A DNA stretch of 51,276 nt from Vermamoeba vermiformis (GCA_045837725.1 JBEWZL010000219.1:248001-299276); one strand, 5' to 3'. Counted from the first letter of the stretch, positions 3,809 through 51,276 are shown. The notes: a model not told the origin generated them from the sequence alone. Made by a program: numbers and translations.

Positions 3809-6020
3809 ATGGAAAAGAAGAGCAGAAACTCTTACAAAGGCGATCAGGAACAGAAAGTGGCTGTGTGGACGTCTTATCAGATACCTGGTAATTAATATCG
3901 CACACTGAGAAGTGCTATATGGTTATAAGTTGCAAATTTATCCATATGCGTCCGTTTAGATTGCCCTTAGAATATTCAAATAATATTTTTTATTCTGCTA
4001 ATTAGAAGGAGGGCCTGAAAATCGATATGGACACACCGCTGTAGCTGTAGGCGATATTGTATATTTTATGGGAGGTAAGAATATGCTGTTTCGCAATTTT
4101 CAATATTTCAGAAAACTTTTCTACCCCTTCAGCGATGAACTTCATTATTAAAAATTATTAAATTATTATTTATCATAGGCAAATCGTTTTCCAGTAATAG
4201 ATTTCAAACTCTGATGGATGTTTGGGCGTTTAACACAACGGATCAAACTTGGAAACACATTACAGTTGGTGAAGGCAAAGAAGGACCGCGACATCGCTGG
4301 GGCCACACAGCGACACTCGTGGATGCGACGAGAATATTTGTGTTTGGCGGATTCAATCACGAGTACAACATGAACGACTGTTGGTTGTTTCATTCTGACA
4401 CGTGTCAATGGGAGGAGTGTAAAGGCGCGGGTAAAGTGCCAGCGTTCAGGTACCTCCACATAATTTCCAAATATGGTAATGTCGCATATTAATACTCATT
4501 GGAACACTAGAGCTTATCACTCATCCATGGCGTACAAAAATCACGTGATCATATTCGGTGGCGCGTGTTGTGTGGGCGGTCCTTATCACCACTACAACGA
4601 CATTTACACGTACAATCTCGATGAGGGTGAATGGAGCAAAGTCGCTGCTTCGGTACGCACTGGCAGCACTCGTGACACATGTCATTTTTGTTTCTAACAA
4701 TAGTACTTGTCACCTAGGGCCAACAACCAAGTGGCCGCAGTCAGCATTCAGTGGCACAAGTGGGCAAGTACATGGTCTTGTTCGGCGGGTACAACAGTCG
4801 CAGTGTCTTCTCCGATGTCTACGTGCTAGATTGCGAGTCATTCAAATGGAAACACATCGAGACGAATGGTGCGCGCATACCTGATTACATTGACAGACTC
4901 GAGCCAGTGCCGTTCAGAGTATTTCCGTCGCGACGTGAGGGCGGCATAGTCGGCACTTGCTTCGTGACTTTGGGTGGTGTCGCTGGTACGTTGTTCTATT
5001 GCCATAAAACACAATAGCAAATTCAACATTTCTTATTAAATCATATTAATGTAGCAATGGAAATATTAATATTTTGTTTAGATAAGGCTACGCCTATTGA
5101 AGTATCAGTGCTCGATCTGCGAACAAAGACTTGGCGAGTGTACACCAACAAGGAGTGAGTTTGAGTAACTATATAACTATGATTATTATAGGCGTTAATG
5201 ATTGCATTTAAAGCGAGGAATCACCGTTGAGTCGCACCAATCACGCGTGTGCAATGGTCGGTTACAAACTCTACATGTTCGGTGGATCGGTCAAATCAAA
5301 CGCAATATATTGCTTAGACCTCGTAGATATATTGCTGCCGAATAATATGCAAGTAAGTAGCTATGATGATGGTATTAAAAACTGATTAGTCTTAAAAACT
5401 TATTTGTAGAAAGAGGAGCTTACAATTCTGCGCCAAATGTCCAAAGACATGCGTTTGATGCTAGAAGACGATGAAGATAAGAACGTGTCGTTTATTATCG
5501 AGAATAAGATTATCAAGGCGCACAAGAGCGTACTCAAAGCCAGATCTGAATTCTTTCGCGCCATGTTTGGATCAGGCATGCGCGAGTCTCAGAACTCCGA
5601 AATTCCGCTCCCCGATGCTACATATGATGCCTTCAAAGCTTTGCTAGAATTTTTGTACACAGGCACGTGCTCCATTAGTGACATCCACCTCGCCGAAGAC
5701 ATTTTCATCTGCGCCAATCAGTTTGCGGCATTTCAGTTGAAGGATTATTGCGAACAAGAGCTCATTAGGGCAGTAACGAATATAAGTAACGTCGATTTGT
5801 TGTTACAGTACTTAGAGATGGCGGATGTGTACCAGGTAAGCAGATTTCAATTTTGGATCTAAAGAACTTGCTTTAAAACCTTCCTTTTTAGGCAAAAAAT
5901 TTACAAGAAGTGTGCGTCAATCTATTAGTCAGCAAATATCAAGAAGTTATCGATAGCGAATCGTTTATGGCTCTGAAGGACAGTTTGAAAGATCTGATAA
6001 ACAATGCCATCGATATCTAA
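3809..6020 (+). CDS. Kelch-repeat + C-terminal BTB/POZ protein (LZTR1-like Cullin3 adaptor architecture)
   Basis: Several kelch motifs (RWGHTATLVDATRIFVFGG, RAYHSS..VIIFGG, MVLFGGY). BTB motif IKAHKSVLKARSEFFRAMF..GMRES..EIPLPD. Stop TAA at 6018-6020. Confidence 0.88.
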
Positions 6021-6146
6021 GCCTATTAATACTGTACATATTGTGAATAGGTGTCACGTCGCCATGTCATAGATTATTAATCCTGTAAATAAACGAAAAT
6101 AACTCGTTAGAAAAAAAGTAACTTTATTTCTAGCAACCACAACAAG

Positions 6147-8468
6147 ATGTCAGACACAGAGCACAACGAGCAGCCAGAAGAAGACTTACCGCAAGAGATT
6201 GACGTTGATGATGATGATAATGAGCCTATAGGTAATAAAGACTTTGAATTACTTTTAAAGTAGATTTTGCTCATCTGTCATCAATAGATTTTAATAATTT
6301 ACCGCCCGCGCTTGCAAATTTATTGCAACAAATACAACTTAATCCAGTGGGCCACCAGTATTTTGGCGACGATATGGCTGAAGACGATGAAGATGAAATG
6401 GAAGATCCACTCAAAAAGAGAGATTATTCGAAGCTCTCTACAGCTATATTTGTTGAGCCTACACTTGCTGTACGATACAAAGTTAGAACACGGCATCAAC
6501 ACCATCAATTACTAAATTTGTGCGAATTGACTGGAGGTAAAGGATCTTCTTCTTTCTTATATATATATTATATTCTTGCCGTTATATTTATGGCGCATGT
6601 CATATTACTAAACTCAAATTTACAGTCCAAATATTTATTAGATTTTTTGGGAATGAGCAAATTGTAATTCCTTTTCTTTCAGACGAATCTGGCTTGTATG
6701 TCTATTCTTACGACAAAGGCTTGGACGAAGCAGCATATAGAGCCTCCTTGGAGTCAGGTACCGAGCTACATCAGGACCAAGATCCAGCAGAGCCAGACGG
6801 AGATTATTGGGGAGCTCCACCACTCAGGAAATTTGACTTCAAGACCCAAAAAGTAAGTTGAAAGTATTATATTATTTATTCTAAGTTCTATGAAATTAAT
6901 ATTGCAACGATTTACCAATTACGCATGCTAATAATATTGAATCATTTCGTATTTTTTTAGTTATTCAATGTGCCAGGCATAACGCTTTCAGGCATTTATT
7001 GCATTGCGTCTAAATATGGATATGTTGCTGTTAACAATAGCGGTGTAGTTCAAGTCATTCATGAAGCAACCGGAAAGTACGTAGATCGCCTCGACATTAT
7101 TATAATTATATTTTGAAATGCGGATTGAAAAAATAACTTTAATTACATCGTAGGCTCGTAGAAGGTGATTTTAAATCCTCAGAAAATTATCATCAGACGA
7201 ACAACGTCTTCTTTGGCACGATGAAAAAATCCAACGGCGAGGATCAAGTCGTTTTGTTGGTCTCAAAGAACGGAGGAGAAATTACGAGTAAGAAAATCAA
7301 TATGATACAGTTATATAAGGCAACGTCTAATATCATAATCAGTGTATGATTTGAATGAAGAAGGTGACAGACACATTTCTAGGCTGCGTCAACACATCGA
7401 AGTGAAGTGGAACATTAATCACTCGGCATTTGGTTTCTTCGAATTTGGCAAATACTTGGTATGTAAATAGAGTAGAGCATAATAGTACTATAATACTGAT
7501 GTCGCTGTTGGTAGATTGGTGCGCCAGATTACGCTGAAGGACCAATTATTTATCAAATGGACGATGCCGAACAATTCACGTTAGTGGACACTTTTCTCAC
7601 TTTCCGTAAGTATAGCTGTACAATAATTACGCTATCATAAGGCTTGTTATTAATCTCACTGCTGTCGTTAGCCAAGCAGACCTCAGCGATGATGTGCACG
7701 TGGCAGGCACAAGGACCGCTCTTTGCCATGGCCACCGAGCGCGGCGAATGTGTTGTGTGGCACTTCCCGTCACGTGAGCGCGTCAAAGTACTGTTGAACT
7801 GCGCGTTGAAAGTGAAAGCAATGGAAGAGGAAGAAGCGCGGCAGCAGCGAGGAGAAACAGCGCCCGAACACAAGACGACGATGACGCCAAGTCTGAAAGT
7901 TCATCGGGCTCAGCGGAGTACTGGTCGATGCCGCTGCATCAGTGCGTCAGAATTGCCAAGTTCAATCCGGTCCCGCTGTTCAATTACAGTAAGGCTGCAC
8001 ACGTTAGATTGACGAGCACTGCAATACTAATCATATCATTGTATAGTTCTTGTGTTTGCCGAGTCAAACTACTTTATTCACATTGTTGACACGAGGACAT
8101 GGGACGAACAAATCATTCAAAGTATGTGACTGGCGCTGGATCCAAAAAATCATTTTTTTCGAATTCTTTCTAATCCCTTATTATTATGCACAGCTCCGCA
8201 AGTTATTAACGGTCTTTGTTTCTCATCTGATGGTCGTAAGCTCTATGTTGGTAAGTACACAAATGAATGTTGTTGGATCAATCAGATCTTGATCTAATTT
8301 CCATCTGTAGCTTATGACAACGAAATTGTTGTATATGAATTGATATTGCGCACATCACTGCTCGAAACGTGCTTGCATTATATCAGAGCGAACATCAACA
8401 AGAAAGAAGAGTTTGGTTGGAACTTGGAGGCCTTGCCTTACGATCTTCAATTCAAAATGAACTATTAA
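6147..8468 (+). CDS. WD40-type beta-propeller protein (DUF2415-like) with acidic N-terminus and a C-terminal SOCS/BC-box-like motif
   Basis: Exons read RHQHHQLLNLC, CTWQAQGPLFAMATERGECVVWH, VFAESNYFIHIVDTR and VINGLCFSSDGRKLYV. The protein ends SLLETCLHYIRANI..LEALPYDLQ. Confidence 0.7.
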
Positions 8469-8629
8469 AATTAATTAATTTCTTCGAAATATTAATGCAA
8501 TTCATTTGCAACGAAATAAATCACTTTTTGTGGTATCTTTAAACGATCTAGAATTTGAATTCAGATCCTTTTGGCCGTAATAATCTAAATACTCTTTTAT
8601 CAGCGTTAATTAGTATATTAATGCTCATC

Positions 8630-9587
8630 TTATTGCTTCTTCTTGTTAGTGAGCAATTTGACCATATCAGGACCTTGTTCTTGTTCGAGCTGCAGTTGAT
8701 GCAATCGTTCAACGCGTGAGATGTGAACAACAGCGTGGAGAATAGCCAAGACGGGCACTAAGATCCAAAGTCCTATTCAGCGGTTATATAAGTTAATTGT
8801 CGACAATTGAAAGGCAGATCTTGAAGGTCAGATCCAGATCCGTCAATGGACCGTACCGTTCGGCACGATGAAATTGCCCCAAAACTTCTCGGGGTCATTG
8901 GCCACGACAATAGGCGCCCAGTTGAGCTTATAAGCACCCAAGAAATACAGCGCAGCACCAGCAGCTTGCATGACTGAAACGATGATCTGCACTGCGTAGC
9001 GCCATGATTTGTTTCTGATGATCTAGCGCGTTATAAAATTAAGGAAACGTAATAATATGTTTTAATAGGCGTAAGTGAATATAGAGTTAAATAGGATACG
9101 GCAATCAGCATCAACAAACATAAAGTCGGGTTGACGAATCCAGCCAAGCCTTGAACGGCAATAATAACAGGATCTTCTTTAATATATCGCTCGTCTGTTT
9201 TGGCAAACTCGCGGACTAAATATAAAGTGGATCAGACGGAAGGTTAATAATCTATAACATGTCTAATATTCTAGCTATTGTTTAAAAATCAAACGACGAT
9301 TAAAAAGAGTTTATTTGTTATTAATATATTAAATGGTGCTATTTTTAATTTATTTGGAATTTTTTGTTTAATTAAAAAGATACTGGATCTGTTAATTTTG
9401 TTTAAAAAAGCCCGGTCTCCCGATTAGCGAACAAGCCATAATTATACGTACACGCAGCAGTATACCATTCATTAACGCTCGGATCAGCTAATTCTTTGTG
9501 ATAGAAGAACGGAGTGAGCCCGTTCAGATGGATCAAGAAGCTTACTGCGTAGAAGACGAACAAGAATAAGTTCCAATAAAACGCCAT
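8630..9587 (-). CDS. EXPERA/EBP (emopamil-binding protein, sterol isomerase-like) membrane protein
   Basis: Hydrophobic exons with REFAKTDERYIKEDPVI (compare EY..D.RY...D), WRYAVQIIVSVMQ..GAALYF, FWGNFIVPN and LWIFVP. The C-terminus is basic (KKKQ*). Confidence 0.75.
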
Positions 9588-9963
9588 TGTAGTGCTGTTA
9601 CGTCAATTACGCCTGTATAGAAGAATAGAACAAAAAAAACTTAAAAAAATCACGTGGAGGTCCGGCGAACTAGCGAGAAACCCTGCGTGAGCCAAAGTCC
9701 AACTTTCCTAATATGGTAAAAACAGCAGAATTTGAGCGCCTCTTTGACAGTGAAGGAGAGGAAGAACAACCGGGCAATTAGACGCGCAAGGCCCAAGGCA
9801 ACAAACGACCGGCCAAACAACGCACGAAAGAAGGAGCCGCAGTTCCCTACACACAAGCCAATGACATTTTTGACACTTTTTGACACGCTACTCAAAGTCC
9901 GTTGAACTGATCACGTGTTCATGAATAGAGCCTAGTACAGTCGACTTGGTTTATCGAGTCAAT

Positions 9964-12338
9964 TTACAACACAACGAGCGACATCAATGCGCTGAACACA
10001 ACAACAAAGTACGAGGCAAGTGTGGTGCCAGAGGATTGACTGCAGAACGTTACATTAGTACATTATTTTATACTACTATAGCATCGTACGTACCAATAAC
10101 TCATGTCTGATGTACCAAACACGCGTGCAATGCCACCGGGTGGATCTGGAATCGAAGGGTTGGGCACATCCAGCAGTGATCGACCACAGACGCTGTTAGT
10201 CATTAGTATTAAGTAGCTAATACATTCTATATTAACTCACGTCGTGTTAGAAGCAGTGTTGGTGCGCATGTAGCTACACAACGGATACTAAAACAGATCT
10301 GTTAGAAGACTTTCCTTTTTTGGCCAATAACATTATTCAAAGATTCACTTACATTAGGCATGGCAGGATAATACGTCAAGAACTCCAAACACATCTCGTC
10401 CGTGCTGGCAATAGAGATGCGTGTGGGCTGAGTGCGCTTCGTGCTGTCCCACACACAGTGCGTGTTGATTCTATCGCCGCGCTTCAATGTGATGTCAACA
10501 GGCACGCCGTGTTGATTGGCAAAAGCGAAGTACTCGACACGTGACAAGGGAATCGGCTCTTCGCCCTGACGATGGATCCAACTCCAGCCTGAGCGCCCAA
10601 TCTCGTGCATGTGGAAAAAGTCAGCAAACACTTTGATGTCGTGGTCAAACTGTTGCGTGCATTCGCTCGGACACGTCGTTTCAGCGTGATGATCTGACAC
10701 GCCGGGTGGAATGCTCGGCAAGCGCGTACCACCGTCTCCAATGGTCTATAACTCCGTTAGGAATAGTACTATATTATATAATACTATATGGTCCTTACGA
10801 GGGTGCTGGCGTCGTATTTTCGCAAGTCAGTTGTAATCAACAATTCAATACCACTTGCGTCTGGCACTCCGCTAACCTGCAGATCCGCGTGTCAAAAAAA
10901 TTGAAAAATTTAGTCCTATTGATTTACCTTTTCCGGATTATTATAGTGCATATCAAGCACAAAATAATACGAAGATTTGTTGCTCGATTTGACTCTGAAT
11001 CCTGCTTCGTGCGGCAAAGTCAACGGTCTGCCGCCACGTGCCCAAGTATACAACACAGTGCAGCCTGGATAACCTAACGGCTGTGGATGATTTCTGCCCA
11101 CACATATGTCAGGCGAGGAGTATATTGAAGGAATTGATCGCAATCCATCGACTGGCTCGAAGTCTTGGCACAGATGCAGCAGCATGTGATGAACAAAGTC
11201 TTTAAATTCAATTAGAACTTCGTAGTAACATGATCAATATGCTTACGAGTAGATCTTGGGTCACCAATGAAGTTCATTCGAATTACATGAGCATCAGCGT
11301 CCTAGCAGAAAATTAGAAAATTCGAAAAATGAGTTGGATCGAGCTTTTAAGGTTACCTGCGGCGTTACAAAAGGCATAGCATAGCACATATATGTTGTCT
11401 CTGATGCTGGGATGGTAATGTTTGGCATTAACGCAGAAAGAGTTTGAGAATTTGGAAGCGGCGTGATCCGTTCAATGGGACAGCCCCAAAAGCATAGAGT
11501 AGTTGCTACTCTATTAGTGCCATGATATCCTAATGTCTTAGCATTATTATCACCCCACGCGATGATAATTGCGTTGTCTCCTGCAACAAGAGTGCGATCT
11601 GAAATATCAACGTCAGATCAAAATTCGTAAATATTCCGCAAATTTAATTATTACCTTGATTATCTCGTGCTATGAAATGTCTACTAAGCTCAACATATGT
11701 CTTTCCATCCTTCTCTTCCGCACTGACCAAGATCCAGTCTGCGCAAAAATGAAAAACGCGTTAAGCACTTTCAAATTTGAAAATTTTGCTTATAAATAAT
11801 GTACAACGATATAGTTATGTACCTGAATATGGACAATCGTCCATTAGAGGCGTTGCAAAGGCTGTTGTGTACCGATCTTGGATGTAGTACTCCCCAGTTG
11901 TCGTATTTTTTTGAATAATAGCAACGTCTGCACCAGGCATACTATATAACGAATATATTCAGCAAAAAGTCTCGTTTTAAAGCAGATCTGTCTTAGCTAA
12001 ATCGCTTCGTGAATATACCTTCCAGAACTAAATTCGCCTACATCAAAATTACATTAATATAACAATATAAATTAATAGTGTCGATAATACACACCTATTC
12101 CAAAGCCGATCCAACCCAGAGTTGAAACTGAAAAATCGAAAATTAAATTTTAACTTCGATTTCGATTATTTCGCTAGTTACCTTCTAAACCAATATAAAT
12201 CTGTTGAGTACTTTGTACAGCTTTCCAATACACCTTGTATTGTTCTGCTAATTGATTTGAGTTCGTGTATTGTGAGGGATCAAATCCAAAAATAACCGGC
12301 AAAACCGCCATGAGCAAACATATAGATATTTTATACAT
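9964..12338 (-). CDS. DOMON + copper type II ascorbate-dependent monooxygenase (DBH/MOXD1-like), with signal peptide and hydrophobic C-terminal tail (probable GPI anchor)
   Basis: Signal MYKISICLLMAVLPVIFG. DOMON motifs WVGSAL and GMPGADVAI. Copper-site motifs FVHHMLLHLC, LDMHYNNP, HMHEIG and STDEMC. Confidence 0.9.
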
Positions 12339-12472
12339 ATGCGTATGATATATAATACATTAACTTGTGTTGTTCTAGAAGAAAAGGAAATTGATGAATC
12401 ACAAAAGTACAAAATCTTGCGTTTTCGCAGCGTTTTTAAATTCCGCAGTTTACCGCTCCATTCTGAGGTCTC

Positions 12473-15400
12473 TTATTCATCAGGGAATGACGAGTTGAGT
12501 TTGTTGCATATTTGTTCCATCGATGGGCGATTGTTCGGGTCTGGTTGCCAACAAGACAGCATGATCTCACGAAGAACTGGATCAACGTTTTGAGGAACGG
12601 TTGGATGATATGCCTCGTTCCTATCAATTGTCATGGTTAATTCTGCCTCAATTATTGATCGAATCTCAACGAGTGTTATTCAGCACAGCTAGACTTACTT
12701 GATCTTGACTGCAACTTCGAGTGGATCGATGTCGATATGAGGCTCATTTCGACTCACAATTTCATATACTACATGAGTGTTATTAGCTTCATCTGTCTAC
12801 AACATATGTCTATCGTGTTTAAGTACGTACGAACAATGCCAAATGACCACACATCACTCTTCGTACTGTATTGAAGATCACGCAAGCTTTCAGGTGCCTA
12901 TTTCATGCAGCTGTATCAGTACTTTGTCACATGTAGTATAAGTACTCGAGTCATACCATCCATCTAATGGGTCCATAGTTTGTTCTTGTCTTTCCTTTCT
13001 CAGCCTCACTCTTCAGAACACGTGACATGCCAAAGTCCTGAATACAAATCGTCAGAGACTGCGTTAAAAACGAATCTACCGCGACCACTTACCGAGATCT
13101 TGGGTGTGCCTGATTTGTTCAACTGTCATGTAAATGCATGTTAGTACCTGACACATGAGAATACACGCAAGATGACACGTGATCGACGCGCTCTCAAAAA
13201 GATCATCTTGAAAAGCTTACCAGAACATTTCTCGCAGCAAGATCACGATGAACAATGTTGTTTGAGTGGAGATGATACAGTCCTCGTGCAATACCTTTGA
13301 TCAATGCGACTTTTTGTTGTGGTGTCAAGGTCACATCAGAGTCGAACAAACGATTGTCCAAACTTCCACCTTCACAGAATTCGAGTACAATGCACGGCAG
13401 CTGACCGTCAAGACTCACTCCGAATGTTTGAACGACATTGGGATGTTGTTGAAGACCGCTGAGGTATCGTACATTAGTAGTGTCACAATTGACAAGTCAA
13501 CTGTTAGTTACTTACACAGTGATTCGTGCTTCATCAAAGAACCCATCCATGTCTGTCACTGATGATGACACTTTGATTGCAACTGGTGTGCCTTTCCATT
13601 CGCTTGAAGAGAGTCAATTCCTGTTTCCTAAAGCACATCAAATCGGCACTTACCCAACATAGACTTTGCCGTAGCTACCTGCACCAATCTCTTTCTTGAA
13701 CACCAATGAATTGTATGGAATCTTCAGACGATCGTCAATCGATTCTGAGAGGTGTCAAGGTCAGATCGTGTTGATTTGTAAGCACTCGTGTACGTACCCA
13801 TTGCGATCTCAACACGACTCTTGCCGTGAAGAAGAGAGCCTTTTCTTTTCTTTCTGCGACGAAGAAGCACGAGCAAGATGATCAATCCTGCTGCCACGAC
13901 CACCACAGGAACAACGATGGCTGGTACGAGCACACTGGCTGGAGGTCCTTCAGTTGTAGGCGCATTCCCAATCGAGTCACTCGGTGCATTGAGAGGTGTT
14001 TTAGAGTCAATCGGACTAGCTGGAATTTGACTGAAAGGACTTGACAGGACTTGTGGCGTTGAAAGGAAGCTCAAACAATCACTGCTGCAGTTAGGTTCAC
14101 CATCGCAAACCTCCTATAATACGCGTTAGTTCCGTGACAGCTGTAGCACTTGCTTCACTCACGCGACTATTTTTTATGCCGTCTCCGCAGAAATTGTGAC
14201 GAATTTGCAGCAGTTGCATTACACCGCTTGATTCATCTCGCACTAGCATTGCGAGTAAATTGTTTGCATCCGCGTTGGAAAGAGTGAAAAACACATTGGT
14301 ACCGCTGAAAGTTACGTTGAGTGGGTTACTAGTATTCGTTTTAAGCTGATAGGCTGTAATAGTGTTCCCATCCGTGTCTCTGCTAATCAGTACTGCGGCC
14401 GTGGGATCATTTGCAAGTCTTCCAAGTCCGAGGTTGGATCCGTAAAACTGGTGAGTAAAAAATTCAGCAGCAGTAATTGCTGCCTCTGTAGGGTTCCAAT
14501 CATGGCAATACACGCTCGCCTAATGAATATTATTAAGGCCGTCAGACGATGGCATTCGATAATTGCGTACGCTCAAAGTGAAGCAAACCACGCCGGAAAC
14601 GTTGTTAAACAGTTGACTTGTTACTGCAACACCTGCTTTTGCTAACGTGCTGTATGCCGAAAAATATCCTGTCGTTGAAAGAGTAGTGCCGGTCCAAATA
14701 GCTGAAGGAGTCTCTAACACCACGGAATAGGTGTCTAGTAACAAAAGATCTCGATGTTAAACTTGAGGAATAATATGTTAAACTAGACTTACCAGGAATG
14801 CCATATTGTAGCAAATTCATTCGCGCGATTGAAGTAACACCGGTAAATGGAATGTCCAGATCGATGTCCGAAAACTGCAGCCCGCTGATAGTGCAGCGAA
14901 TTAAAGCCAGCTTGGCGCCATTCTATTATAAAGTTAGTGCTTGAGAAGCTGGGAGTTAACCACCCTTACGTAGTAATACGAGATTCCTACAACCAGGTTC
15001 GACGGATCGTTTGGATCGGCGACAACATTCATTGCGTAAGCTGGGAAAGTAAATATACTAACAAGGTGGCCTTGTGTTGGTACAGGGCTGGTAGGGCTAA
15101 CGTCTGTTACGACATATAACTGGATACGCGTTAGCTAACCTGATCTCTTGCTTTGTAACTCACCAAATAGCTTGAAGAACCCTGTTTGATCGCGTAAAAC
15201 AGATAGCAATTCTTCTCGACTGCTCCCAGAGTAAACAAGTCGGAACTACTGACGGGTTGAGCGAAGGTCAAAGGCAAATCTACAGATCCAAAACCGAAAA
15301 CAAGTCTGTTCAAATTATTAATAATGACATTACTGGTTGCTAATAATAATTCCAACAATTAACTAAAGGGTTACCTAGTATTGCTTGTGCGGTAAGCAAA

Positions 15401-15561
15401 GCAATATTTGCCGTTTTGCGCGGCAACTACAACGCTTTCATTTGAATACGATGGATAACTAATACTATTATTTTTTTCAACGTAAAATTCATCCGTACCT
15501 ACGTAATCCAATCAATAAAAATAATAATCGCAATCAGATCCAAAAATGGAATTCGCAGCAT
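12473..15561 (-). CDS. Receptor tyrosine kinase paralog A (single TM, tyrosine-kinase-type catalytic domain)
   Basis: TM segment VLVPAIVVPVVVVAAGLIILLVLL followed by RRRKKRK. Kinase motifs IGAGSYGKV, VAIK, HRDLAARN, DFG, GPIRWM-APE and KSDVWSFG. A Cys-rich CGDG juxtamembrane motif is present. Start approximate. Confidence 0.88.
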
Positions 15562-15867
15562 TGCTGCATCTGTATCTACTTACTCTGTTGATTACGAACG
15601 AGATTCGCTGAAATCAAAACTATAACCGCAATCCAGATTCCGTGCCACATCCAAGTTGATCTGCCCTTAACTTTGCAAAATACTTTCTCGAGGGCCACTA
15701 TTAGTTGCTACTCATCGATAAATAATAATAAATACACAAAATCTCCAAGCACTAACCAGCTGTCAAGCCATTTCTTGTGTACCTTGTTGCAGGAACATCC
15801 GCTCAGTTTGAATTAAGAGCTTTACTATTAATATTCAATAAGCTGAGCTCAGCTAGGATGTAGCTCC

Positions 15868-31234: not shown

Positions 31235-34200
31235 CTACAGCTTGGCGAGCTCTTTCTTCAGCTCGTCAATGACACGCGCGAACTTTGGTTTCATGTCAAG
31301 CGAGGCCTCTTTCATCCACTTCTCGCACTGCTTGATGATCGCGTCTTTTTCGAGCTTGAAGTGCAAGTTGATAACCTCCGCAAATTCTAAAGAACGAGAA
31401 TGAGTTTAGCTATTTATATTTACACAAGCTGGATCTGCTCACCTGCTGGCGGGTTTCTCAACTGTTCAATCATCGCAAATCGGATGTTGGTGTATTGAAT
31501 GTTCTCGTTGTACTCGTGCGACCTCTTGTCACCTTCTTTGGTGCCTCGCTGCGCTTCATAGGACGGCTCGTTGAAGTAAGGTTCTTCGACCATAATCAGG
31601 CCTTGAATCGAGATCAGCACTTGTTGCAAGTTGGACGACACTGCATTCCACTTGGAGCTCGCGTCACCGTGCCACGTGCCCAAGAGCGACAAGCACACTT
31701 TGCCGTCAGTGTACAAGTTAGGATTGAAGCGCGCAGTGCCTATTTTGCACGTGTTAGAACATGTGTCACCGAGTGCTCGTGGTTTACTTACCGTTGCCTG
31801 TGGTGGCCAAGTTGACGAGTGGCGGGTCTTGAGGGTACGTGGCGGGGAAGAAGATGTCAAATACAAAGCATCCCGAGCCATAAGGCGTGCCTTTAGGACC
31901 AGTAATCACCGCTTTCATCACGTCCATACGTTCTTCATCCGTGCGAACAAAGATGGATGAGCCACGGCTGATCGGCAACAACGAATCGAACGAGCCGCAT
32001 TCTTTGGCCAATCGCTGCATCTTCTCTTTCGAACTCGACTGCGAACTGATAATGTTGTTGCTGTAGTGGTGGTTGTACGTGATTTTGTCGCCCTCTTCTT
32101 TTGACATTTGGAAGCTGTCGAAAATCATCGGCTTCAATGTCTCTACGTAAATCTTTTCGAGCTCCATTTCTTTCTCGCGATCAACAACGTCTTCGATTTC
32201 CATTTGATCTGGGACAGGCTCGTTCGTTTGGTTGTCGCTGGGCTGGACGACGGAGTTGACTTTAGCGATCAGTTCACCGAAAAGGTTCAATCCTTCTTCG
32301 CCGACCAAGCGTTCTCGTGAAATAATTTGGAACGCTTTTTGCATGATCTGCGGACTGTATTCCAAGTCTTTGCCGAGAGCAGTCACGAACTCTGGCTCTT
32401 TGGCAAATGACAGCGTCAAAGTTACGATCTTGCGCAACAATTCACGCGGATGGAAGTTGTATTTTTCGGGGTTCTTCACCTTCAAGTTCAACATGCGAGG
32501 GCCGCACAGCTCTTCAAAGAAATGATTGATTGTCGAGACTAACTTGGCCACGACTTCAGGGGACTTAGTGAAGGGCTCAACGAAATCTAAATTTCAAGTG
32601 TTAGTAACTAGCACCCATTGAACTCATTCAACGCTATCCTTGCCTTTGGTAAGGTTCACCAAGAAGTCCAAGATGGAGTTGGCGAGATTCAAGAACGCCT
32701 TGCTGCTGCGCTCTTGGCCCTCGTAATACTGCTCACGCTGCGTGCGTCGTTCAGGCAGTTGTTTGTTCCACTCTTCAACATTGGCCATGGCGACTTGAAG
32801 CTCTTTGATGTCTGCCAAACGACTCAACGAATCGTCCAACAACATGATAGAGTCACTGAAAGTGGTCAGTTAGTGTCAGATGTTATAGTGTGACTCAACT
32901 AGTACGTACCTCAACACGGTGCCCAAGAACTTGTCGGCCTTGAAGAACGGAATGTTCTGATTGACGTCCAATGTCGCTTTGATCACTTTGCGGTACTCTT
33001 GATCGGACCACAGCTGATTCACCAGTGTAGCAATGCTCTTGCGCACGACATACTTGTCGAACTTGTGTCGGTCCACATCGAGACCTTCAACGGCGGAATC
33101 GACGTCACAATACAGCACGAACAGGCCACTGATCAGTGATTGGCGCGAAGTTTTCAAAGCATGTAGTGCGTCACGGAACTGTGATTTGAGAGGCTCCAAT
33201 AGAATGGGTGTACTTAACGGATTGACAAATGTCAGATCTCACACATATTTGTCCCTAAGTACTTGTTACTTACGTGTTGGCAGGCTGCTTGTATCCAAAT
33301 CCAAAGTTCGTTGGAGGAGCAGGGGCCTTTTGATTGCCCAAGAAATTGATCTCGGTCAACAACTCCAAGAATTTCGATCGGATAATGGCGCTGCGGATCA
33401 ACTTTGAGTCACTCACAAAAGTGCTGCAGAACGTGATCATCACGTCCAGCATTTGCGGTGTGAACACATTAGGCTCCGTGCGACCAATAAATGTCAAATA
33501 ATCGATGACATCCTCCACAAAGTACTCGGGCATCGTGGCGAAGATGGCTTCACGCAAGTTTTTGCCCTCTTCAGTGCTCGCGTTCTCGTTGTAAATTTTC
33601 AACATCCAATGCATGAATTGCATACACAGGTCTTAAATAGGGATGATTAGAATGGTTGCGCGATGAGCGAATACTACTTACTGTGCATTAAGGTCATGTA
33701 GTCCGGATGCGTGATGTGAACACAATAACCATCGACGATTAAATAATACAAATTGAGATTTTGCAGCACCTTTTGACCCTCTGGCATATTAGCGTAGAGC
33801 TCGCCATACAAGGCTATTTGTTTTTGCTGTAAATTCTTGGTGTTGATCAGCGCTTGTTGATAACTGTTATACACTCGAACAGCGGGCATTAAACTAAATG
33901 AAATATCTTTTAAGTAACCAAAAATGATGAAAGGATATATTATTTTTTAACTTACCCAACGTGCATAGAAACCAAGGTCAAGAAAAATATTTCGGAGACG
34001 AAAGTGAACTCGCCTTCTTTCAATTTCTGTTCGACGTTGAAATCAAACACCTTTTCAATCTTTGCTAGCTTCGACTTGCTTCCAAATTCCAGTCGCTTCG
34101 AATACGTGCAGTAATAAGGGCTGATCAGACTTTCCTTGCTGAAATTCGTGTCTAAAAATGGCTTGCAAAACTCCAATAGACAGCAGTGCAAGTTCACCAA

Positions 34201-43977: not shown

Positions 43978-46310
43978 ATGGTAATCACAATAACAATGAG
44001 GCGTGGTCTTGCATCGTTGTTGTTAATTTTATTTTTGGGCACGCGATCGACTTCGTTCGCCCAATCTTGTCAAACTTTATTTACCTTCGACGATGGTACT
44101 GTACAAGGATGGAATTATGGAACATCTCCAGATTATTCTGCCTCCTTTGCCACGAGCGTAGGAGCCTCGCAGAGTCACGCAACGAGTGGAAGTTATTCGC
44201 TTCAATTAGGCTTCAATAATATGGGTGGCAAACAATACGCTGCTTATTACGTCGAAAATACGGGAGGATGGGCGTTGTCTGCATACCAATCGATCAAATT
44301 CAATTTGGATCTTTCAGAAACAGGTAAATTAAATATTTATTTTCGTTAAAGGACTGTGAGATTAGCCAAATCAATTTTACGATATTTATTATCATACTAT
44401 AGTTTATTTAATGACGCAACTGTTTCGATTAAATAGTCAAATAACTCTTTATCTGCAGATTTGGTCAAGAATGTTAGTGTCGCACTGAGTACGGGTTCCA
44501 GCTGGAATTGGCAAGAAACAAGTCAAGTAACTAGTCTCACGGCAGGTAAGTCTTTCACATTATGCGGCTTCGGGCCTCGAATTCTAATCCTTCGCAGGAT
44601 CCAATTCAATCTCGATTCCAATTTCTTCGATTACTTCCCTCAATGAAGTGCATCGCATCGCTATATTACTGTTCACGACTAGTGGTTCTGGGAGTGCCTT
44701 TGTCGATACCATTCAATTCTGCCCGACAACCTCTTCCCCTCAAGCGTCAGCCCCAACTGGTTCGAACCCCCCTCCTGCTCCCGTGTCTTCTACCAACACG
44801 TGCTCACGATTCGTGGCTGCTTCAGGAACCAAATTTGCCGTGGATGGTTGTTGGATGTACGTCTCAGGCACGAACAACTACTATCTGTCGTACCAAGGCG
44901 ACGCTGCCCTCAACGATTTCATGACTGCCATGAGCTCACTGGGCATGAATGTGTTACGCACTTGGGGATTTATTGACGGCGGATCCACTGATGGTACTAC
45001 GAGGTAAATAGATCACCGTTCTGTCCACGCAGCTAACCAAGGTTTCAGATACAACGTTGATCCTCCTGGGCACAAAAACAACGTCATCTTTCAGTACTGG
45101 AACAATGGTGTCGTGCAGAATACGGGTGTAAATGGCTTGAATAATCTTGACAAAATTCTCGCTGCTGCCGCGACGAAGGGAATCAAAGTCATCATTCCCC
45201 TTGTCAACAACTGGAAAGCATTTGGTGGCATGGATCAATATGGTAATAGCCTTTTGCAGCGTTTTGTAGCCAAATCAGTCTGATTATTATCTTGCAGGTG
45301 TTTGGTTCCAAACCGCAAATTTACACGACCAATTCTACACCAACTCGCAATCACGTCAAGCTTTCAAAAATTATATTTCGGTGCTCGTAAATCGCGTCAA
45401 TTCTGTCAATCAGCGCAAATACTCAGAAGGTACGAATAACGTCAGATACTGATAGGCTAACACAAACACCAGATCCGACAATTTTTGCGTGGGAATTAGC
45501 CAATGAGCCTCGTTGCAAGGGCACTGACTGGCCTGCCTCCTCGAACTGCAACACGAAGATGATCGTCGATTGGGTCAGCGAGATGAGCTCGTACATCAAG
45601 TCCATCGATTCAAACCACATGGTCTCTGTTGGCGATGAAGGTTTCTTTAGCAGGTAATTATTTTAGTGATTCATTCTTAGTTACTAATCAATTCGCAACA
45701 AACAGACAAGGTGTGAGTGACTGGACTTATGATGGCAGTGAAGGTGTGGATTTTGAAGCATTTTTGCGCTTGTCAACAATTGACTTCGGCACTCTCCACT
45801 TGTATCCTGAAGACTGGGGCAAATCATCTGACGAGTCTTGGGCCACTAACTTTATCCTTGATCACATCAACGCAGCCAAAAACATTGGTAAACCAGTCAT
45901 TCTTGAAGAGTATGGTTACAAGGATCAAAGCCAGCGCAATAGAATTTACCAGGACTGGCTGGACGTTGTGTACAACAATGATGGTGCTGGAGACTTGGTG
46001 TGGATGTTGGCTGCTGATGTGAATGGATCTCCTTATCCTGACTATGATCAATTCACAATTTACAAGAATTCAGCTGCTGTGAATGTGATTTCACCACACA
46101 TTGCACGCATGAAGCAAAAGAATACTTGTTTCCAGTGCAGTAAGTGCTTAATTCCTTCCATACTCCATCTAATTCCTGAATCTAGCTCCAGGCAGTGCCA
46201 GTCCCAGTTTGGCCTCTCCCAATCCAACTCAAGCTGGTGTGCCATTGACTGCAAGCTCTGCCTCTCAATTGGTGTCAATATGTTTGCCTTTAGTTTTCCT
46301 GCTTTGTTAG
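43978..46310 (+). CDS. GH5 (subfamily 7-like) endo-beta-1,4-mannanase with N-terminal CBM-like module, P/S/T linker and GPI-type tail
   Basis: Signal peptide, then an [11 protein letters not shown] module. Catalytic-domain motifs [37 protein letters not shown] (acid/base), HLYPEDW and KPVILEEYG (nucleophile). The spliced last exon ends [18 protein letters not shown]. Confidence 0.9.
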
Positions 46311-46458
46311 CTTCAAATAAACAGTGTGCAGGCACAAGATTTGGACAGCAACCAATCACATGGTAGCTGGTAAGAGAGTTGAAGTAATGATTGATAGGGA
46401 CAGTTGGGCATTGGTATTTGGTTGTCACAAGTTCTTTTAGTGAAAATCTGTCCTAAAA

Positions 46459-46480
46459 TTAGGGTTAGGGAGGGTTAGGG
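46459..46480 (+). repeat. Interstitial telomere-like repeat TTAGGG TTAGGG AGGG TTAGGG
   Basis: Read directly from the sequence. Confidence 0.75.
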
Positions 46481-46962
46481 ATCCTCCTGTCACGTGACAC
46501 GATCCCGATCCGCGTTGCTAATTAACGCGTAAGTAAATTTTTTATTTATATTGATAATAGGTCCTAACTACAGTATTAGGGCCAAAGGACAGGTCTTTGC
46601 TCGCCACGGGCGAGCGAAGCGAGCCCGTGCAACAGCACCAAATCGCCGGTCCAGCAAATCAAGCTGCTGGACTGCTAAATCAACGCGAACACGTAATTTT
46701 GAACACGTCGCGAACAGAAGCACAACACAGCAGATTTAAGTAAGTTATTTATTGTCATAATAATATCAATTGCTATATTCAATGCTAGATCGTGTCCCGA
46801 GTGACACGAATCTAGATTTAAAATTCAAGACTTTCGGTTATTTAGCTAACCGAAGTCAAATTACATTATAATAAATTACAATAACTAACATATTAATATT
46901 TTAGGTTCTATTTGATTACTTTTGGCCCTTAATTCAATTTCGAGTCAGATTTGAAAACGTAA

Positions 46963-48151
46963 ATGGCCGGTAAGTGTCGCGATTTTTATTTCATTACTTT
47001 CGCACGAGTATTAACAGTTTTTAACAGAATTTTCTTGCAATTATTGCGAGAAGAAGTTCAGTAAAATCGGAAAGTTGAATTTCCACGTCAAAGACTGCCA
47101 CCCCGAAGACGAGACGAGCAAGAAGTGCCCATTATGCAATAAAACATTTGGTTCTGTCTCAAACAAACTGCGGCACGAGCAAACTGGCTGTCCAAAGGAG
47201 CGGAAGATTGTTTGGATTCCGCCCGAGGATGTGAATAAAGAGAAAATTAATCATCGCCATGTGAACCAACGCAATCAATTGACAGACAACTCTCTCGAAA
47301 TTATTCAAATGTTTAAGCAGTACTTGACAGCTGGCAGTACTTCAACCTTTATGCTCAGTCGCGGCAAACAGCAGCTAGAAAAGTCAAGTGTCGAGTCGTA
47401 TGTCAGTCATTTTCGAGTGTATTTAGCATTTGTTGAGGTAAGGTAACTTATTTTGCTTTACTGTTAGCTAACTTAGCACACAGAGTGCAGAAACTGATCG
47501 CGATGTTATTGATTGCTTCCTTCGCGTTAAAACAATTAAAGACTATGTTCGGCACTTGACGGAATCTGAGTACTGTAAGAAGACAATACTTAACAGATTG
47601 CTTGCTTTGGAGAGGTTCTGTGGATTTGTTGAAGAGAAGATTGACAATCTTGCAGCAACCAATCTCACTTCTCGCAAACGCACCAAGCCATTTGAAAAGA
47701 CAGTTGCAGAGACATTTGAGTGGCTCAGTGCCCAGATTAAAGTGTATCGTCCAATCGCAACAAAAGAAACCTTGGCACGTAACAGCCGTGAGACTTACGA
47801 GCAAGAGGGCCGCTGGATATCTCCTCAAAAGCTATTTTCAAAAGAACAAGAGCTTCGAGAGCATATTAACACCTTGATTAGTCAGTGCGAAGCAAATCCG
47901 GATCGAAGGTACTTTTTGTTTGAAAGGTGGTGTGGTTCTAATTTGTAATACAGACCAACAATGGCAGACATCCAAGCTATCCAACGCTATTTGTTGTTTG
48001 TGTTAGTGGTTCGCAGGCCACCAATGCGAGCTCAGAACTTCCAGCTTTTAATACTCGAGAAAGTTGAAAATCCAAAAGAAGCCAAGCACAATGCAGTTGT
48101 TTTTGAAGGGGAAGAAGTCATTTTGCAGTACAGTGAATACAAAACAAAGGC
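46963..48151 (+). mobile_element. Intron-containing C2H2 zinc finger + tyrosine recombinase-like gene (Crypton-like); C-terminal catalytic half not found in the window
   Basis: Spliced MAEFSCNYCEKKF..HVKDCH and CPLCNKTF..RHEQTGC. Integrase core-binding-like helices FKQYL..KSSVESYVSHFRVYLAF and KKTILNRLLALERFCGF. Catalytic-like RPPMRAQNF (R) and YSEYKTK (K). A GTAAGT donor at 48152 has no nearby acceptor leading to HxxR/Y motifs. Confidence 0.62.
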
Positions 48152-48278
48152 GTAAGTAATGTCAATTTGATAATGTAGATTACTAATTTTATATATACTT
48201 GGGGTTGACGGACGTTTGGGTTATGGAAAAAATACTAAGTCGAATGGCCAACGCATGAAATATCCTCTGGACAACACC

Positions 48279-49165
48279 AGAGGTCGTTACCTCCAAGGCG
48301 ACAACATTGGAGGTCGTTACCTTCAAGGTGAAGACATTTAAAGTCAGGCAGGTTGTTACCTTCAAGGCGACAACGTCCAATGTCAGGGAGGTCGTTACCC
48401 TCAAGGCGACAACGTCCAAAGTTAGGTAGGTCGTTACCTTCAAGGCGACAATGTTGGAGGTTGTTACCCTCAAGGCGACAACGTCCATCGTCAGGGAGGT
48501 TGTTACCTTCAAGGTGACAACGTGAGAGGTCGTTACCTTCAAGTCGACAACGTGAGAGGTCGTTACCTTCAAGGCGACAACGTGAGAGGTCGTTACCTTC
48601 AAGTCGACGACATCCAAAGTCAGGGAGGTCGTTACCTTCAAGGCGACAACGTCCAATGTCAGGGAGGTTGTTACCCTCAAGGCGACAACGTCCAAAGTTA
48701 GGTAGGTCGTTACCTTCAAGGCGACAACGTTGGAGGTTGTTACCCTCAAGGCGACAACGTCCATCATCAGGGAGGTTGTTACCTTCAAGGTGACAACGTG
48801 AGAGGTCGTTACCTTCAAGTCGACGACATCCAAAGTCAGGGAGGTCGTTACCTTCAAGGCGACAACGTGAGAGGTCGTTACCTTCAAGGCGACAACGTGG
48901 GAGGTCGTTACCTTCAAGGCGACAACGTGAGAGGTCGTTACCTTCAAGGCGACGACGTCAGAGGTCATTACCCTCAAGGTGACAATGTCCAAAGCAAGGT
49001 AGGTCATTACCTTCAAGGCGACAATGTCACAGGTTGTTACCCTCAAGGCGACAACATCAGAGGTTGTTACCTTCAAAGCGACAACGTCCAAACCCGGGGA
49101 GGTCGTTACCTTCAAGTCGACAAAGTTTCAGGTTGTTACCCTAAAAGCTACAACCTCAAAGGTCA
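48279..49165. repeat. Tandem array of ~26 units (30 or 39 bp) around a 23-bp imperfect palindrome GTYGTTACCYT-C-AAGGYGACAAC
   Basis: Counted by eye. Core GAGGTCGTTACCTTCAAGGCGACAACGT followed by a 2-nt (GA/TG/CA) or 11-nt (CCAAAGTCAGG-like) linker. Units 3-7 are re-duplicated as units 11-15. Confidence 0.95.
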
Positions 49166-49194
49166 ATACATCAGTGCAACAATTGAGTGAAGAG

Positions 49195-50566
49195 TTACAA
49201 TTTTATTTTGTGTTTGAATTTGTTTGCAATCCTACGACACTTTTTGTTAAATCTACGCTTTAATCTTGCAACCTCTTTGTCGTTGGCTGAGCTCTCATCT
49301 TCGCTTTCAGTGCAGTCATCAGAATAATCAGGAAAAGTAACGCTATTAAACATTAGAAATTGATATCAAATTGGATTATAACACATACTTGCAGAGAACA
49401 TCACAATATGGAACAAACATTGTATCAATATCTTCAGATTCTCTCTTTGGTGCAGCAGACTGGTGGTTGCGTGGCTTTTTGACACGCATCTCGCTAGTTG
49501 ATAACGCCTTTCTTTTGGAATGACTTGCCTCAGACTAGTACAATTAGCAAAGCTACAGAGATGGACATCATACTAACCTTTTGCCAAGCAAAGTAATGAG
49601 ATAGTCCTGGCCCTTGGAGAACTGTCGCCATTTTACGCCAATTTTGCGGCAAATCAACAGACTCGCATGTCGAATAACAAATTTCTTCTTTCCGAGAGAC
49701 CAAAGTAACACTGTACCAGCTTACTGTTGTTTCGCGACAAGCTTGTTGTCGAAATGAAAACAGCATCACAGATCTTAAATCAAGCCATCCAAAGTCCATG
49801 AAATCGACACAGTTCAGTGCCGAGGATGACATATGTAAAAACTGACCAATAAATTCAGTGCTCATGCGTTGAAGAAGGTTACGGTTGTGATCATGCTTTA
49901 AAAATTGTCTAGCATTGATGAATGGACGTATTTCTATAAAAGATGTGAGTCTTTTGTATGCTGCAAATCTGGTGATTACCGAAATAATAATATAGCCGTT
50001 GAAGAATCTCATTGACGAGCAACGGACCAAAACCATTAAATAAGCAAGGATCCAGCAGAGCCTCAAACAAAGTGATTTGTCGCAAGTAATCACTTTGAGT
50101 CGACAAGACAGTTGTAAGGTTTGCGGTAAATAGAGCTGATTCTAAGAGGATGTCAGGGCCATAAACATCCCACACCAGTTCAGGCTGAAAGACCACCACA
50201 GATCTGCCAACCCCTTGATCCACCAACAATAGAGTGTTGCCAGTAACCGTTTTCATTGTTAAAGAGGCTTGCTCTACCACAGCCTGTGCCACACTGTCAT
50301 GAGCAGCAAAAACCAAATAACTGCCCTTAGAAATACACAATCGCAATGCCATTCCCTCATTGAACACGATACCAAGCTCTCTCCCCCGTGTTTTTACCTA
50401 CAAATTGTCAATTATACATGTTTTTCAATTTTTTATTACCGCATACAGTTTGTACAGTTAATTTTACTTGCTGTACAAGAGTAGGTTTAATTTCGCAAAA
50501 TTCTTCTAATTTTATCGACTTTTCTAGCCATTGTTGCAACGAAACGCAGTCCGTGTACTCGAGCAT
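49195..50566 (-). CDS. Fpg/Nei-family (NEIL1-like) DNA glycosylase homologue with non-canonical N-terminus (MLEY instead of MPEG)
   Basis: Spliced motifs RGRELGIVF, YGPDIL, TLFEALLDPCLFNGFGPLLVNEILQRL and (across an intron) FEIRPFINARQFL. These align by eye with NEIL1 RGKEL, RGPCVL, ICEALLDQRFFNGIGNYLRAEILYRL and KIPPFEKARSVL. An acidic/basic tail ends at TAA 49195. Middle splice sites are approximate. Confidence 0.75.
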
Positions 50567-51276
50567 ATTGTAAAACTACTTCACAGCCTAAATAAAACTC
50601 CTTAGATTTTCTATTGTAGCCGTATAATAATTTAACTAATTATTGCTAATTTAAAAAAAAATTCAATTTGCCTGCCCCGTGCTTGACCCCGCGTACTTCG
50701 AGCAACACCGCCTGTCAATTGCTCGTGGTTTGAACGTGCTTAAGGGTGTACGAAATCACAGATCTCGAATAGTTAATTTAATTTAATAAAATTAACAAAT
50801 ATTAGTAAAATAAAGTTATAATACGGCTGTGTGTTATAACTGAAATCGAGAATAATTCATGTGCACTTACGCGATAAGATCGTTATTGCACAATTTTTGG
50901 TTTGTTGTGCACCTAGTCTTTCCATTAAAATAGTAGTAATTATTTAATTTTTTAGTGCTCATTCGAATGAGAATGGCGCCACTAAATTTTAATCCACGGG
51001 TGGGCGGATTAAAATCCGTTTTTCAAACGGGAAATAAACGTTCACGAATGAGCGAACGCGTCCACCGTTTTAGCGGACTATAATAGCACTTACCTTGTGC
51101 TGCTAGCTGCAATTTGGTCGTGTAAAAGCTCGAATTTTGCTCCGATCTAATTTTAGAAAAGCACGTGACCGCCACGTGCTTGTGTCACAGAAATTATTTT
51201 CCGCATTTGTTTCATTCTAATTAACCTTAACGTAGTCAACAACACAGTAGGGCCCAAACGTCCGTCGTGTTATTGT

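Follow-up and report, generated by a model that had tools for sequence, protein, structure and literature searches.

The last 4.8 kb of a stretch of DNA from Vermamoeba vermiformis (GCA_045837725.1 JBEWZL010000219.1:248001-299276) contain a gene for a zinc-finger tyrosine recombinase (YR), a minisatellite, and a gene, read from the opposite strand, for a protein that resembles the DNA glycosylase NEIL1. Here, "the window" means the whole stretch, which is 51,276 nucleotides long. Coordinates are positions within it, and the part under study (46459-51276) lies at the end of its contig. On balance, this part is probably a mosaic of two unrelated repeat families, nested or juxtaposed, that stand behind a short TTAGGG-like tract.

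A reading of the sequence alone had offered a different hypothesis. It held that recombinase, array and glycosylase form one cargo-carrying YR element with palindromic sites, and it gave "nested elements" as its fallback. The fallback is the version that fits the data best. The single element is not supported: its supposed parts contrast in read depth, other copies of the YR gene leave the sequence of the window at position 48188, and half-sites are absent outside the array.

In the mosaic, the first part (approximately 46481-48188) would be an incomplete copy of a Crypton-type DNA transposon, with its left end at or beside the TTAGGG tract. An intact YR copy would, by analogy with Cre, Xer and the Cryptons, break and reseal DNA by way of a phosphotyrosine linkage; the element would excise as a circle and then re-integrate at a specific site. 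Its zinc fingers would, in the same analogy, contribute DNA targeting. The copy in the window would have been interrupted or cut off in its fourth intron, at 48188/48189. It is most likely dead, because it supplies only two of the catalytic residues (the box I Arg and the Lys) and because that intron is interrupted. The second part would begin somewhere within approximately 48189-48270 and run past 51276 on the opposite strand. It would be a more abundant repeat carrying a fast-evolving NEIL1-like gene and then a minisatellite of variable length that is decaying at its CpG sites, both within the same repeat.

A tyrosine recombinase with zinc fingers

The YR gene occupies 46963-48151 on the plus strand. 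It is modelled as four exons with GT..AG introns throughout, and its product is 346 amino acids long. The putative exon 1 (46963-46969) is simply an ATG, the predicted start, with four further nucleotides before a GT donor at 46970; it joins the next exon in frame. Exon 2 (47028-47437) encodes two zinc fingers and the beginning of a SAM-like domain, as recognized by Pfam, by tblastn to the homologues P0016, P0014 and P0020, and by alignment. Exon 3 (47484-47908), which finds its relatives by phmmer, encodes the SAM-like core-binding domain and linker helices. Exon 4 (47954-48151) starts the catalytic domain. It holds the box I Arg, within RPPMRAQN, and the Lys of YKTK, and has a GT donor at its end. 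The splice sites are regarded as valid because, when the product is aligned with full-length homologues that have no introns, no gap falls where the exons meet. Thus, the spliced gene of the sequence-only reading stands.

That reading had also assigned two C2H2-type fingers to the gene. Two fingers are indeed present, and they are all that Pfam sees in the YR exons (zf-Di19, whose cut-off is 27.5 bits, scores 29.6; zf-C2H2 has E = 5e-4). By eye, the first is C2H2 and the second is C2HC.

The relatives of this protein are few. When exon 3 was used in a phmmer search of 1.84 billion representative sequences, 35 proteins were recovered at E ≤ 1e-3, 20 of them at E ≤ 1e-10 and two at E ≤ 1e-30. 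Many of the 35 are fragments the size of an exon; the long forms are P0014 (788 amino acids), P0020 (710), P0034 (535) and P0016 (439). Among 14 homologues scanned, Phage_int_SAM_1 rises above its curated cut-off in five, and C2H2-type fingers appear at E ≤ 0.01 in six. A word-index search of 5.8 billion clusters returned 5,474 candidates, with four full-length members of the family among them, the query included. A tblastn search of metagenome and viral contigs with a YR alignment found no related locus. The family is rare and its distribution is patchy.

Four of the homologues (P0014, P0020, P0040 and P0041) carry a long disordered tail rich in Ser, Pro and Asn that ends in a RanBP2-type zinc finger. 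These four are uninterrupted open reading frames (ORFs) on contigs of 2.1-3.1 kb, and are possibly transcripts.

Standard profiles for recombinase families do not see these proteins. Phage_integrase, DUF3504, DUF3435 and GCR1_C give no signal at E ≤ 10 in P0014, P0020, P0034 or P0016, and DUF3435 gives none at E ≤ 1 in the exons of the window. Kinship with the Starships of fungi, for which DUF3435 was the proposed check, is therefore not borne out. A sequence search of the PDB with exon 4 found no match, and a search of the same database with a YR profile was swamped by the zinc fingers.

The case for a recombinase comes from the fold. Here, the comparison was made with an AlphaFold2 model of the full-length homologue P0020, built from a 20-row alignment, and not with the copy in the window. 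The mean pLDDT of the model is 70; values lie mostly at 85-98 across residues ~20-440, and the disordered tail accounts for the low ones. For P0020, the model predicts the two-domain YR fold, with a helical core-binding domain and a catalytic domain. When Foldseek compared the model with the PDB, all three matches at E ≤ 0.001 were Cre (best E = 6.9e-4, probability 1.00). The rows listed down to rank 42 are all YRs (Cre, the Tn1549 integrase, XerA, XerD, XerH and the integron integrase), and the first unrelated row has a probability of 0.08. The matches to Cre, XerH and the Tn1549 integrase extend across both domains, which is what a check of the fold had been proposed to look for.

A second comparison, by VIA-align with residues 104-469 of the model, gave XerH at Z = 13.5 (rmsd 4.4 Å, 271 residues aligned) and Cre at Z = 12.8 (268 aligned), scores that helical models can reach by chance. 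Chance is disfavored here because the result is consistent across the family and covers both domains. Rows 1-28 are all YRs, and the type IB topoisomerases come next.

The catalytic residues are also in place. The columns that hold R322, in RP(T/P)MR(S/A)QN, and K361, in YK(T), are invariant in all seven aligned sequences, of which the window is one. Five homologues continue past this point, and they have in common S/G-T-I/L-R-K, L-H-D and (K/R/Q)-Y-Y at the places where the second Arg, the His and the Tyr nucleophile are expected, an equivalence to Cre that is drawn from alignment. Judged from the predicted fold, the zinc-finger gene family is a genuine YR lineage, because the fold matches coincide with conserved R, K, xxxR, H and Y columns. 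This upholds the integrase-like helices and the R/K motifs that the sequence-only reading had picked out.

An incomplete copy, and other copies in the reads

The window does not hold a complete recombinase. Its YR gene covers the first two-thirds of the protein and encodes just the first Arg and the Lys; the box II Arg, the His and the Tyr nucleophile lie outside the window. When six YR homologues were run against the window by tblastn, matches fell only within 47000-48152, and the best E beyond was 0.09. The alignment ends at YKTK, at the GT donor at 48152. The homologue P0013 ends at the identical residue, which suggests that the site of this intron is conserved.

To see other copies, reads were mapped to 45000-51276. 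These were Logan contigs from X1, a DNA run with the same organism label, and from X4, a water metagenome, together with two raw RNA runs. An X1 contig follows the window to 48188 and then departs into a 255-letter loose end that is unlike the window. An X4 contig (record 13) matches at 371 of 436 letters, likewise ends at 48188, and is unlike the window thereafter. The first 37 nucleotides of the fourth intron (48152-48188) are thus common to other copies, and the breakpoint is 48188|48189.

The loose end itself is informative. Translated by hand, its first 30 letters give 10 nucleotides ending in AG and then, joined to the last two letters of exon 4, the peptide A-T-Y-G-F-T-K. At this place the homologues carry YKTA(QQ/TR)YGF. 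On this reading, the fourth intron is whole in at least one other copy, and exon 5 follows it. If the hand reading is right, the copy in the window would be broken 10 nucleotides before the splice acceptor of exon 5. By eye, no signature of a Helitron, of piggyBac or of terminal inverted repeats is seen at 48188/48189.

Depth separates the two parts. The following values are summed word depths in X1, a quantity that the tool warns is no copy number. The host gene has approximately 175-316. Depth is 350-680 over 46470-48149, approximately 2-3 times that of the host flank. It is 4,380 in the bin 48150-48359 and reaches 15,700 in the minisatellite. The Nei-like gene has approximately 1,500-4,000. 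The right-hand part as a whole has 1,200-15,700, several-fold to approximately 70-fold above the host flank; its last two bins have 1,224 and 697. The large contrast between the YR part and the right-hand part points to two families of differing abundance. The YR part is itself present in X1 as two variants, one that matches 47537-47759 exactly (depth 163) and one that has 10 differences there (depth 344).

Contigs that leave the window further to the right, at 48263 (X1) and at 48730 and 49755 (X4), go on with telomere-like letters of the TTAGGG/TTAGGC type. These tracts may be either boundaries of blocks or the ends of elements.

The Nei-like gene

The second gene lies on the minus strand at 49195-50566. 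It is a complete ORF for 388 amino acids in five exons (50566-50468, 50397-49980, 49933-49578, 49534-49389 and 49342-49195, the last including the stop), separated by GT..AG introns of 70, 46, 43 and 46 nucleotides. The sequence-only reading had called it a convergent, spliced homologue of Fpg/Nei. Its convergent orientation and its splicing hold; the protein is very divergent, and its kinship to NEIL1 has support from profiles. Pfam is silent: Fapy_DNA_glyco, H2TH and Neil1-DNA_bind have no match at E ≤ 1 in the exons of the window, and none in any of the five members of the family.

The family is small. Relatives of similar length number only four in 5.8 billion clusters (92, 56, 60 and 56% identity), and no longer protein related to it was found among 862 candidates. 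A profile made from the five members matches NEIL1 at E = 4.5e-6, across NEIL1 residues 128-186, which is the H2TH region. Of the 18 matches listed, 15 are NEIL1, and the remainder have E ≥ 0.62. A search of the PDB with a single sequence reached NEIL1 only at E = 0.66, and exons 1 and 3 gave nothing informative there. In the ESM Atlas, a Nei-like exon falls among clusters of the Fapy_DNA_glyco and H2TH families (score 0.94, 173 shared features), and nine of its ten best family-bearing matches belong to one family or clan. A tblastn search with the Nei alignment found no related locus among viral and metagenome contigs.

Conservation within the family is concentrated. In exon 2, which encodes 139 residues, all 33 invariant columns lie in the H2TH half, 23 of them within the last 37 residues. 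An AlphaFold2 model of this exon, made from the 5-row alignment only, has a mean pLDDT of 39.

In Fpg/Nei enzymes, the nucleophile is the N-terminal Pro (or Val) that is exposed when the Met is removed. The Nei-like protein begins, at its predicted start, with Met-Leu-Glu. It is probably a DNA-binding relic rather than an active glycosylase, because the N-terminal Pro is missing. As in NEIL1, which carries a zincless finger, there is no CxxC zinc finger at the C-terminus. The H2TH region and the ESM features are the points of likeness to NEIL1 and the Fpg/Nei enzymes. The protein differs from them in having no Pro nucleophile, in being invisible to Pfam, in being multicopy, and in belonging to a family, with four close relatives, where conservation is confined to the H2TH end of exon 2.

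Upstream of this gene, a hairpin-rich region (50567-51276, minus strand) reaches the end of the contig. As DNA, it folds with z = -3.2, none of 20 shuffles being as stable, and depth falls across it from 2,717 to 697 toward the end. It contains the right arm of an inverted repeat that is taken up below.

The minisatellite

Between the two genes, at 48270-49170, lies a minisatellite. In place of the approximately 26 tandem 23-bp palindromes of the sequence-only reading, it has 25 cores of 24 nucleotides that are barely palindromic. Matches to the core number 24 with up to three mismatches, where none are expected, and 25 with up to four. TRF reports periods of 30 or 39 bp, with higher-order units of 69 and 276 bp. 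The spacings between cores are 30 bp in 13 cases and 39 bp in 11, so that all 24 are multiples of three. The dyad is weak: 8 of 11 arm pairs match, the fold has z = -1.9, and 16 of 200 shuffles are as stable.

Joints within the array, as seen in the reads, skip 592, 707 and 718 nucleotides, which means that there are copies with shorter arrays. Where cores vary, 18 of the 35 variant cells fall at five CpG-linked positions, and the three codon phases have 12, 13 and 10. The CpG clustering and the lack of a codon-phase bias indicate neutral decay at CpG sites, not coding constraint.

Could the array nevertheless be coding? A minus-strand frame through it (48238-48957) matches the Pfam family Pentapeptide at E = 1.2e-12, with 47.5 bits against a cut-off of 20.2. 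An exon in this frame was considered and set aside as the main reading, given the absence of a codon-phase bias, the clustering at CpG positions, and the want of an evident start. An exon linked to the Nei-like gene was set aside as well; no link is evident, and the stop of that gene lies upstream of the array. The Pentapeptide match probably arises from a period of 10 residues in which every fifth is Leu.

The array was also considered as a set of sites for the recombinase. Its dyad is weak, its depth is unlike that of the YR part, and outside the array the YR and Nei parts contain neither the core nor its half-sites. It is therefore proposed that the array belongs to the second repeat and is not a set of recombinase sites.

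The junction and an inverted repeat

Within the segment that joins the two parts (48189-48269) lies one arm, the left (48207-48220), of a perfect 14-nucleotide inverted repeat, whose right arm, at 51253-51266, stands near the end of the contig. Together, the arms bracket 3.06 kb that contain the array and the Nei-like gene. The motif has only these two perfect copies in the 51-kb window; with up to three mismatches, it has three matches, where 2.66 are expected.

By eye, 48210-48242 resembles the start of exon 5 in the uninterrupted copy, with 11 of 13 letters alike and then, after a gap of 10 nucleotides, 6 of 8. This likeness could mark a recombination site, could be left from a complex rearrangement, or could be chance.

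The left flank and the setting

The window is eukaryotic, with genes split by GT..AG introns of 43-70 nucleotides. Its final ordinary gene is an ORF of the GH5/Cellulase type, whose last exon has its stop at 46308-46310; host genes do end at 46310, as had been read. When 46301-51276 was compared with the rest of the window by BLASTN and tblastx, no second copy was found, and nothing similar in the other 46 kb.

The TTAGGG repeats and hairpins reported beyond the host gene are also real. The repeats form a short interstitial telomere-like tract (46459-46480, plus strand) to which TRF assigns a period of 6, 4.0 copies and a 77% match, and its G strand is oriented toward the end of the contig. 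An exact 12-mer occurs once; at least one match, with up to one mismatch, occurs in 9 of 100 shuffles. The tract lies at or beside the left edge of repeated DNA, for summed depth in X1 rises across it from 175 (46260-46469) to 500 (46470-46679). The hairpins lie in the non-coding 5' region of the YR element (46481-46962, plus strand), which has several stems of 7-13 bp and a CACGTG palindrome. As DNA, this region folds with z = -5.49, and none of 100 shuffles is as stable; its ORFs have no Pfam match.

Throughout 46250-51276, Rfam calls no rRNA; its lone match, which is snoRNA-like, scores 19.6 bits where the gathering score is 50. In two runs, RNA-seq reads stack only at approximately 46371-46408, within 46371-46445, as partial matches with long loose ends on both sides. 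The letters of 46371-46445 look like part of a small-subunit rRNA, which Rfam does not call. Past the host gene and ahead of the TTAGGG tract, there thus seems to be a short, degenerate, rRNA-like fragment.

An X4 contig, from a related strain with approximately 97% identity to the host gene, departs from the window at 46282, which is 28 nucleotides before the stop, and continues with 255 other letters. The rearranged region may therefore begin within the last exon of the host gene.

Aside from the zinc fingers of YR exon 2, the 43 ORFs and exons scanned (10 + 33) have no match at E ≤ 0.01 to a reverse transcriptase, a transposase or any other family of enzymes. Elsewhere in the window, the end of a Ufd2P_core domain (E = 1.6e-28) and the beginning of a ubiquitin-conjugating domain, UQ_con (E = 9e-11), are joined in one minus-strand ORF (31784-32593). 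This may be a fused gene or the read-through of two neighboring exons.

Weighing the explanations

Several observations weigh against the mosaic of two repeat families as it is told here. Its contrast in abundance is built upon summed depths, and the rise in the bin 48150-48359 can be explained by the array alone. The continuation of other copies into exon 5 depends on 30 letters and a hand translation. The likeness of 48210-48242 to exon 5 is not what a clean insertion predicts. For the second repeat, the left edge can be placed only within 48189-48270; its right junction lies beyond the window, where a YR gene that resumes after the second repeat would go unseen. What looks like insertion could instead be truncation followed by juxtaposition. 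Neither element has a target-site duplication or clear termini within the window, and the mobility of either is putative, as the data contain no empty site and no circle. Last, two RNA runs with the same species label (approximately 1.85 billion letters each) gave 30 and 7 reads, all before 46470 and none on 46470-51276. This last null says little, because depth on the host gene is also ≤ 0.38.

The main alternative is that the contig ends near a chromosome end and that the region is a patchwork of subtelomeric duplicons. Here, the TTAGGG tract would be the scar of an old telomere, and the YR block, the minisatellite and the Nei-like family would have been shuffled by recombination between chromosome ends, with no recent transposition into an intron. 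Multicopy genes and minisatellites, both present here, are typical of subtelomeres. The G strand of the tract points toward the end of the contig, all DNA distal to it is repeated, and the window terminates inside repeats. Telomere-like letters stand directly at the breakpoints 48730 and 49755 in X4 and 48263 in X1. The related strain in X4 departs inside the last host exon, at 46282, and just before the tract lies a piece that is matched by abundant RNA reads and looks like small-subunit rRNA. Yet the tract is only 22 bp long, and the window has no terminal telomere array. Further, the YR family encodes a transposon-type enzyme with a rare and patchy distribution, and the break at 48188, within an intron of an otherwise intact frame, looks like an insertion. 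The subtelomeric account is unlikely, if still worth real weight, and it is compatible with blocks derived from transposons; the two views do not exclude each other.

The perfect 14-nucleotide inverted repeat invites another account. In this one, the Nei-like gene and the array would be a separate, non-autonomous segment moved by the same YR family, with the inverted repeat as its sites; it would have entered the YR gene near a look-alike, and may invert or excise. By a rough estimate, approximately 0.05 such pairs are expected per 5 kb, yet one brackets these 3.06 kb, and the 51-kb window has no further perfect copy of the 14-mer. The start of exon 5 in the uninterrupted copy resembles the left arm, by eye, and YRs do use sites with inverted arms, as the accessible text of PMC3212892 has it. 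However, once up to three mismatches are allowed, the motif occurs no more often than expected by chance. The arms lie approximately 18 nucleotides inside the break at 48188, with flanks that do not match, and the single pair has no spacer or second arm of the kind found in lox/FRT-type sites. Such a segment is highly improbable.

Least probable of the accounts considered is the single element, similar to a Starship or a Crypton, in which the recombinase would stand at the 5' end, the array would serve for its binding or recombination, and the cargo would be the Nei-like gene. The gene order and the convergent orientation are as it describes, the YR is genuine, the cores do have a weak dyad, and the three parts all follow the last host gene. 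Yet depth differs between the YR part and the rest by several-fold to approximately 40-fold, and other YR copies leave at 48188 to enter the next exon, as read by hand. The YR gene here is without its catalytic half. DUF3435 is absent, half-sites of the core are absent outside the array, and the dyad is within the range of shuffles (16 of 200).

A more venturesome idea may be entertained, with a slim chance of being right. The multicopy module that holds the 14-nucleotide inverted repeat, the minisatellite and the intact Nei-derived gene would represent a type of mobile element new to eukaryotes, with a relative of the H2TH glycosylases, disabled in catalysis and serving DNA recognition, as its hallmark. 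The module would move itself or be moved by the zinc-finger YR lineage, and both families would home to TTAGGG-like tracts.

Comparison with known systems

If the two-family mosaic is right, its first part is to be compared with Crypton DNA transposons, reportedly described by Goodwin in 2003. Cryptons, according to the accessible text of Kojima and Jurka (2011, PMC3212892), have a YR as their only enzyme, low copy number, no terminal inverted repeats, short (4-6 bp) terminal direct repeats, and extra DNA-binding domains. Several of these features fit. The YR is the sole enzyme seen in the window, with no reverse transcriptase or DDE transposase; its gene has introns; its abundance is low, at approximately 2-3 times host depth with two sequence variants; and the visible end of the element has no terminal inverted repeats. 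The YR has an additional DNA-binding domain fused to it, which may be compared with GCR1_C in CryptonF (PMC3212892, accessible text).

There are, of course, differences. The N-terminal pair of fingers, and the C-terminal RanBP2-type finger of four full-length relatives, are absent from the layouts in the accessible text of PMC3212892. Neither DUF3504 (CryptonA) nor GCR1_C (CryptonF) is found in the four long homologues at E ≤ 10, a comparison that covers CryptonA and CryptonF. In the YR alignment, the position three residues ahead of the box II Arg has Ser or Gly, not His. Finally, the left end of the element abuts a TTAGGG tract.

Starships, which belong to the Pezizomycotina, are led by a DUF3435 captain, make target duplications, and span tens to hundreds of kb; four named elements have 75-195 kb (PMC9156397, accessible text). 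The DNA described here is similar in that a YR gene near one end reads inward with other genes downstream. It differs in having no DUF3435 (PF11917) domain, in having approximately 5 kb visible against those 75-195 kb, in that the downstream gene comes from another, more abundant repeat, and in that neither target duplication nor terminal repeats were found in the window. The host, further, is not shown to be fungal.

The DIRS1, Ngaro and PAT elements likewise have a eukaryotic YR with a SAM-like N-terminal domain. In contrast to these, the 43 ORFs and exons here include no reverse transcriptase, RNase H or methyltransferase, and the YR gene has at least four spliceosomal introns. Retroelements normally have no spliceosomal introns.

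Significance

The claim of a single integrated system of recombinase, array and glycosylase is not supported, and should be dropped. What probably replaces it are two separate families, each with its own interest.

The Nei-like gene is intact, bears introns, is multicopy and lacks the catalytic Pro. A search of the literature found no counterpart to such a gene, and nothing that links an H2TH/Nei protein to a transposable element. It is worth study as the source of a putative DNA-binding protein borne by a repeat.

The recombinase touches a broader question, as YR-driven DNA transposons are among the least known of eukaryotic mobile elements. The lineage described here is rare and looks like a new variant of the Crypton type. 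At the N-terminus it has a pair of zinc fingers, which SAM-like and YR domains follow, and there is often a RanBP2 finger at the C-terminus. This layout was not found described in a literature search that included the accessible text of PMC3212892, PMC3537659, PMC3627910 and PMC9156397, with Repbase reports and PDF supplements outside its scope. The lineage escapes detection by the phage-integrase, DUF3504 and DUF3435 models of Pfam. If confirmed, it would add a branch to the Cryptons, and would provide a candidate for a site-specific recombinase that has zinc-finger targeting built in.

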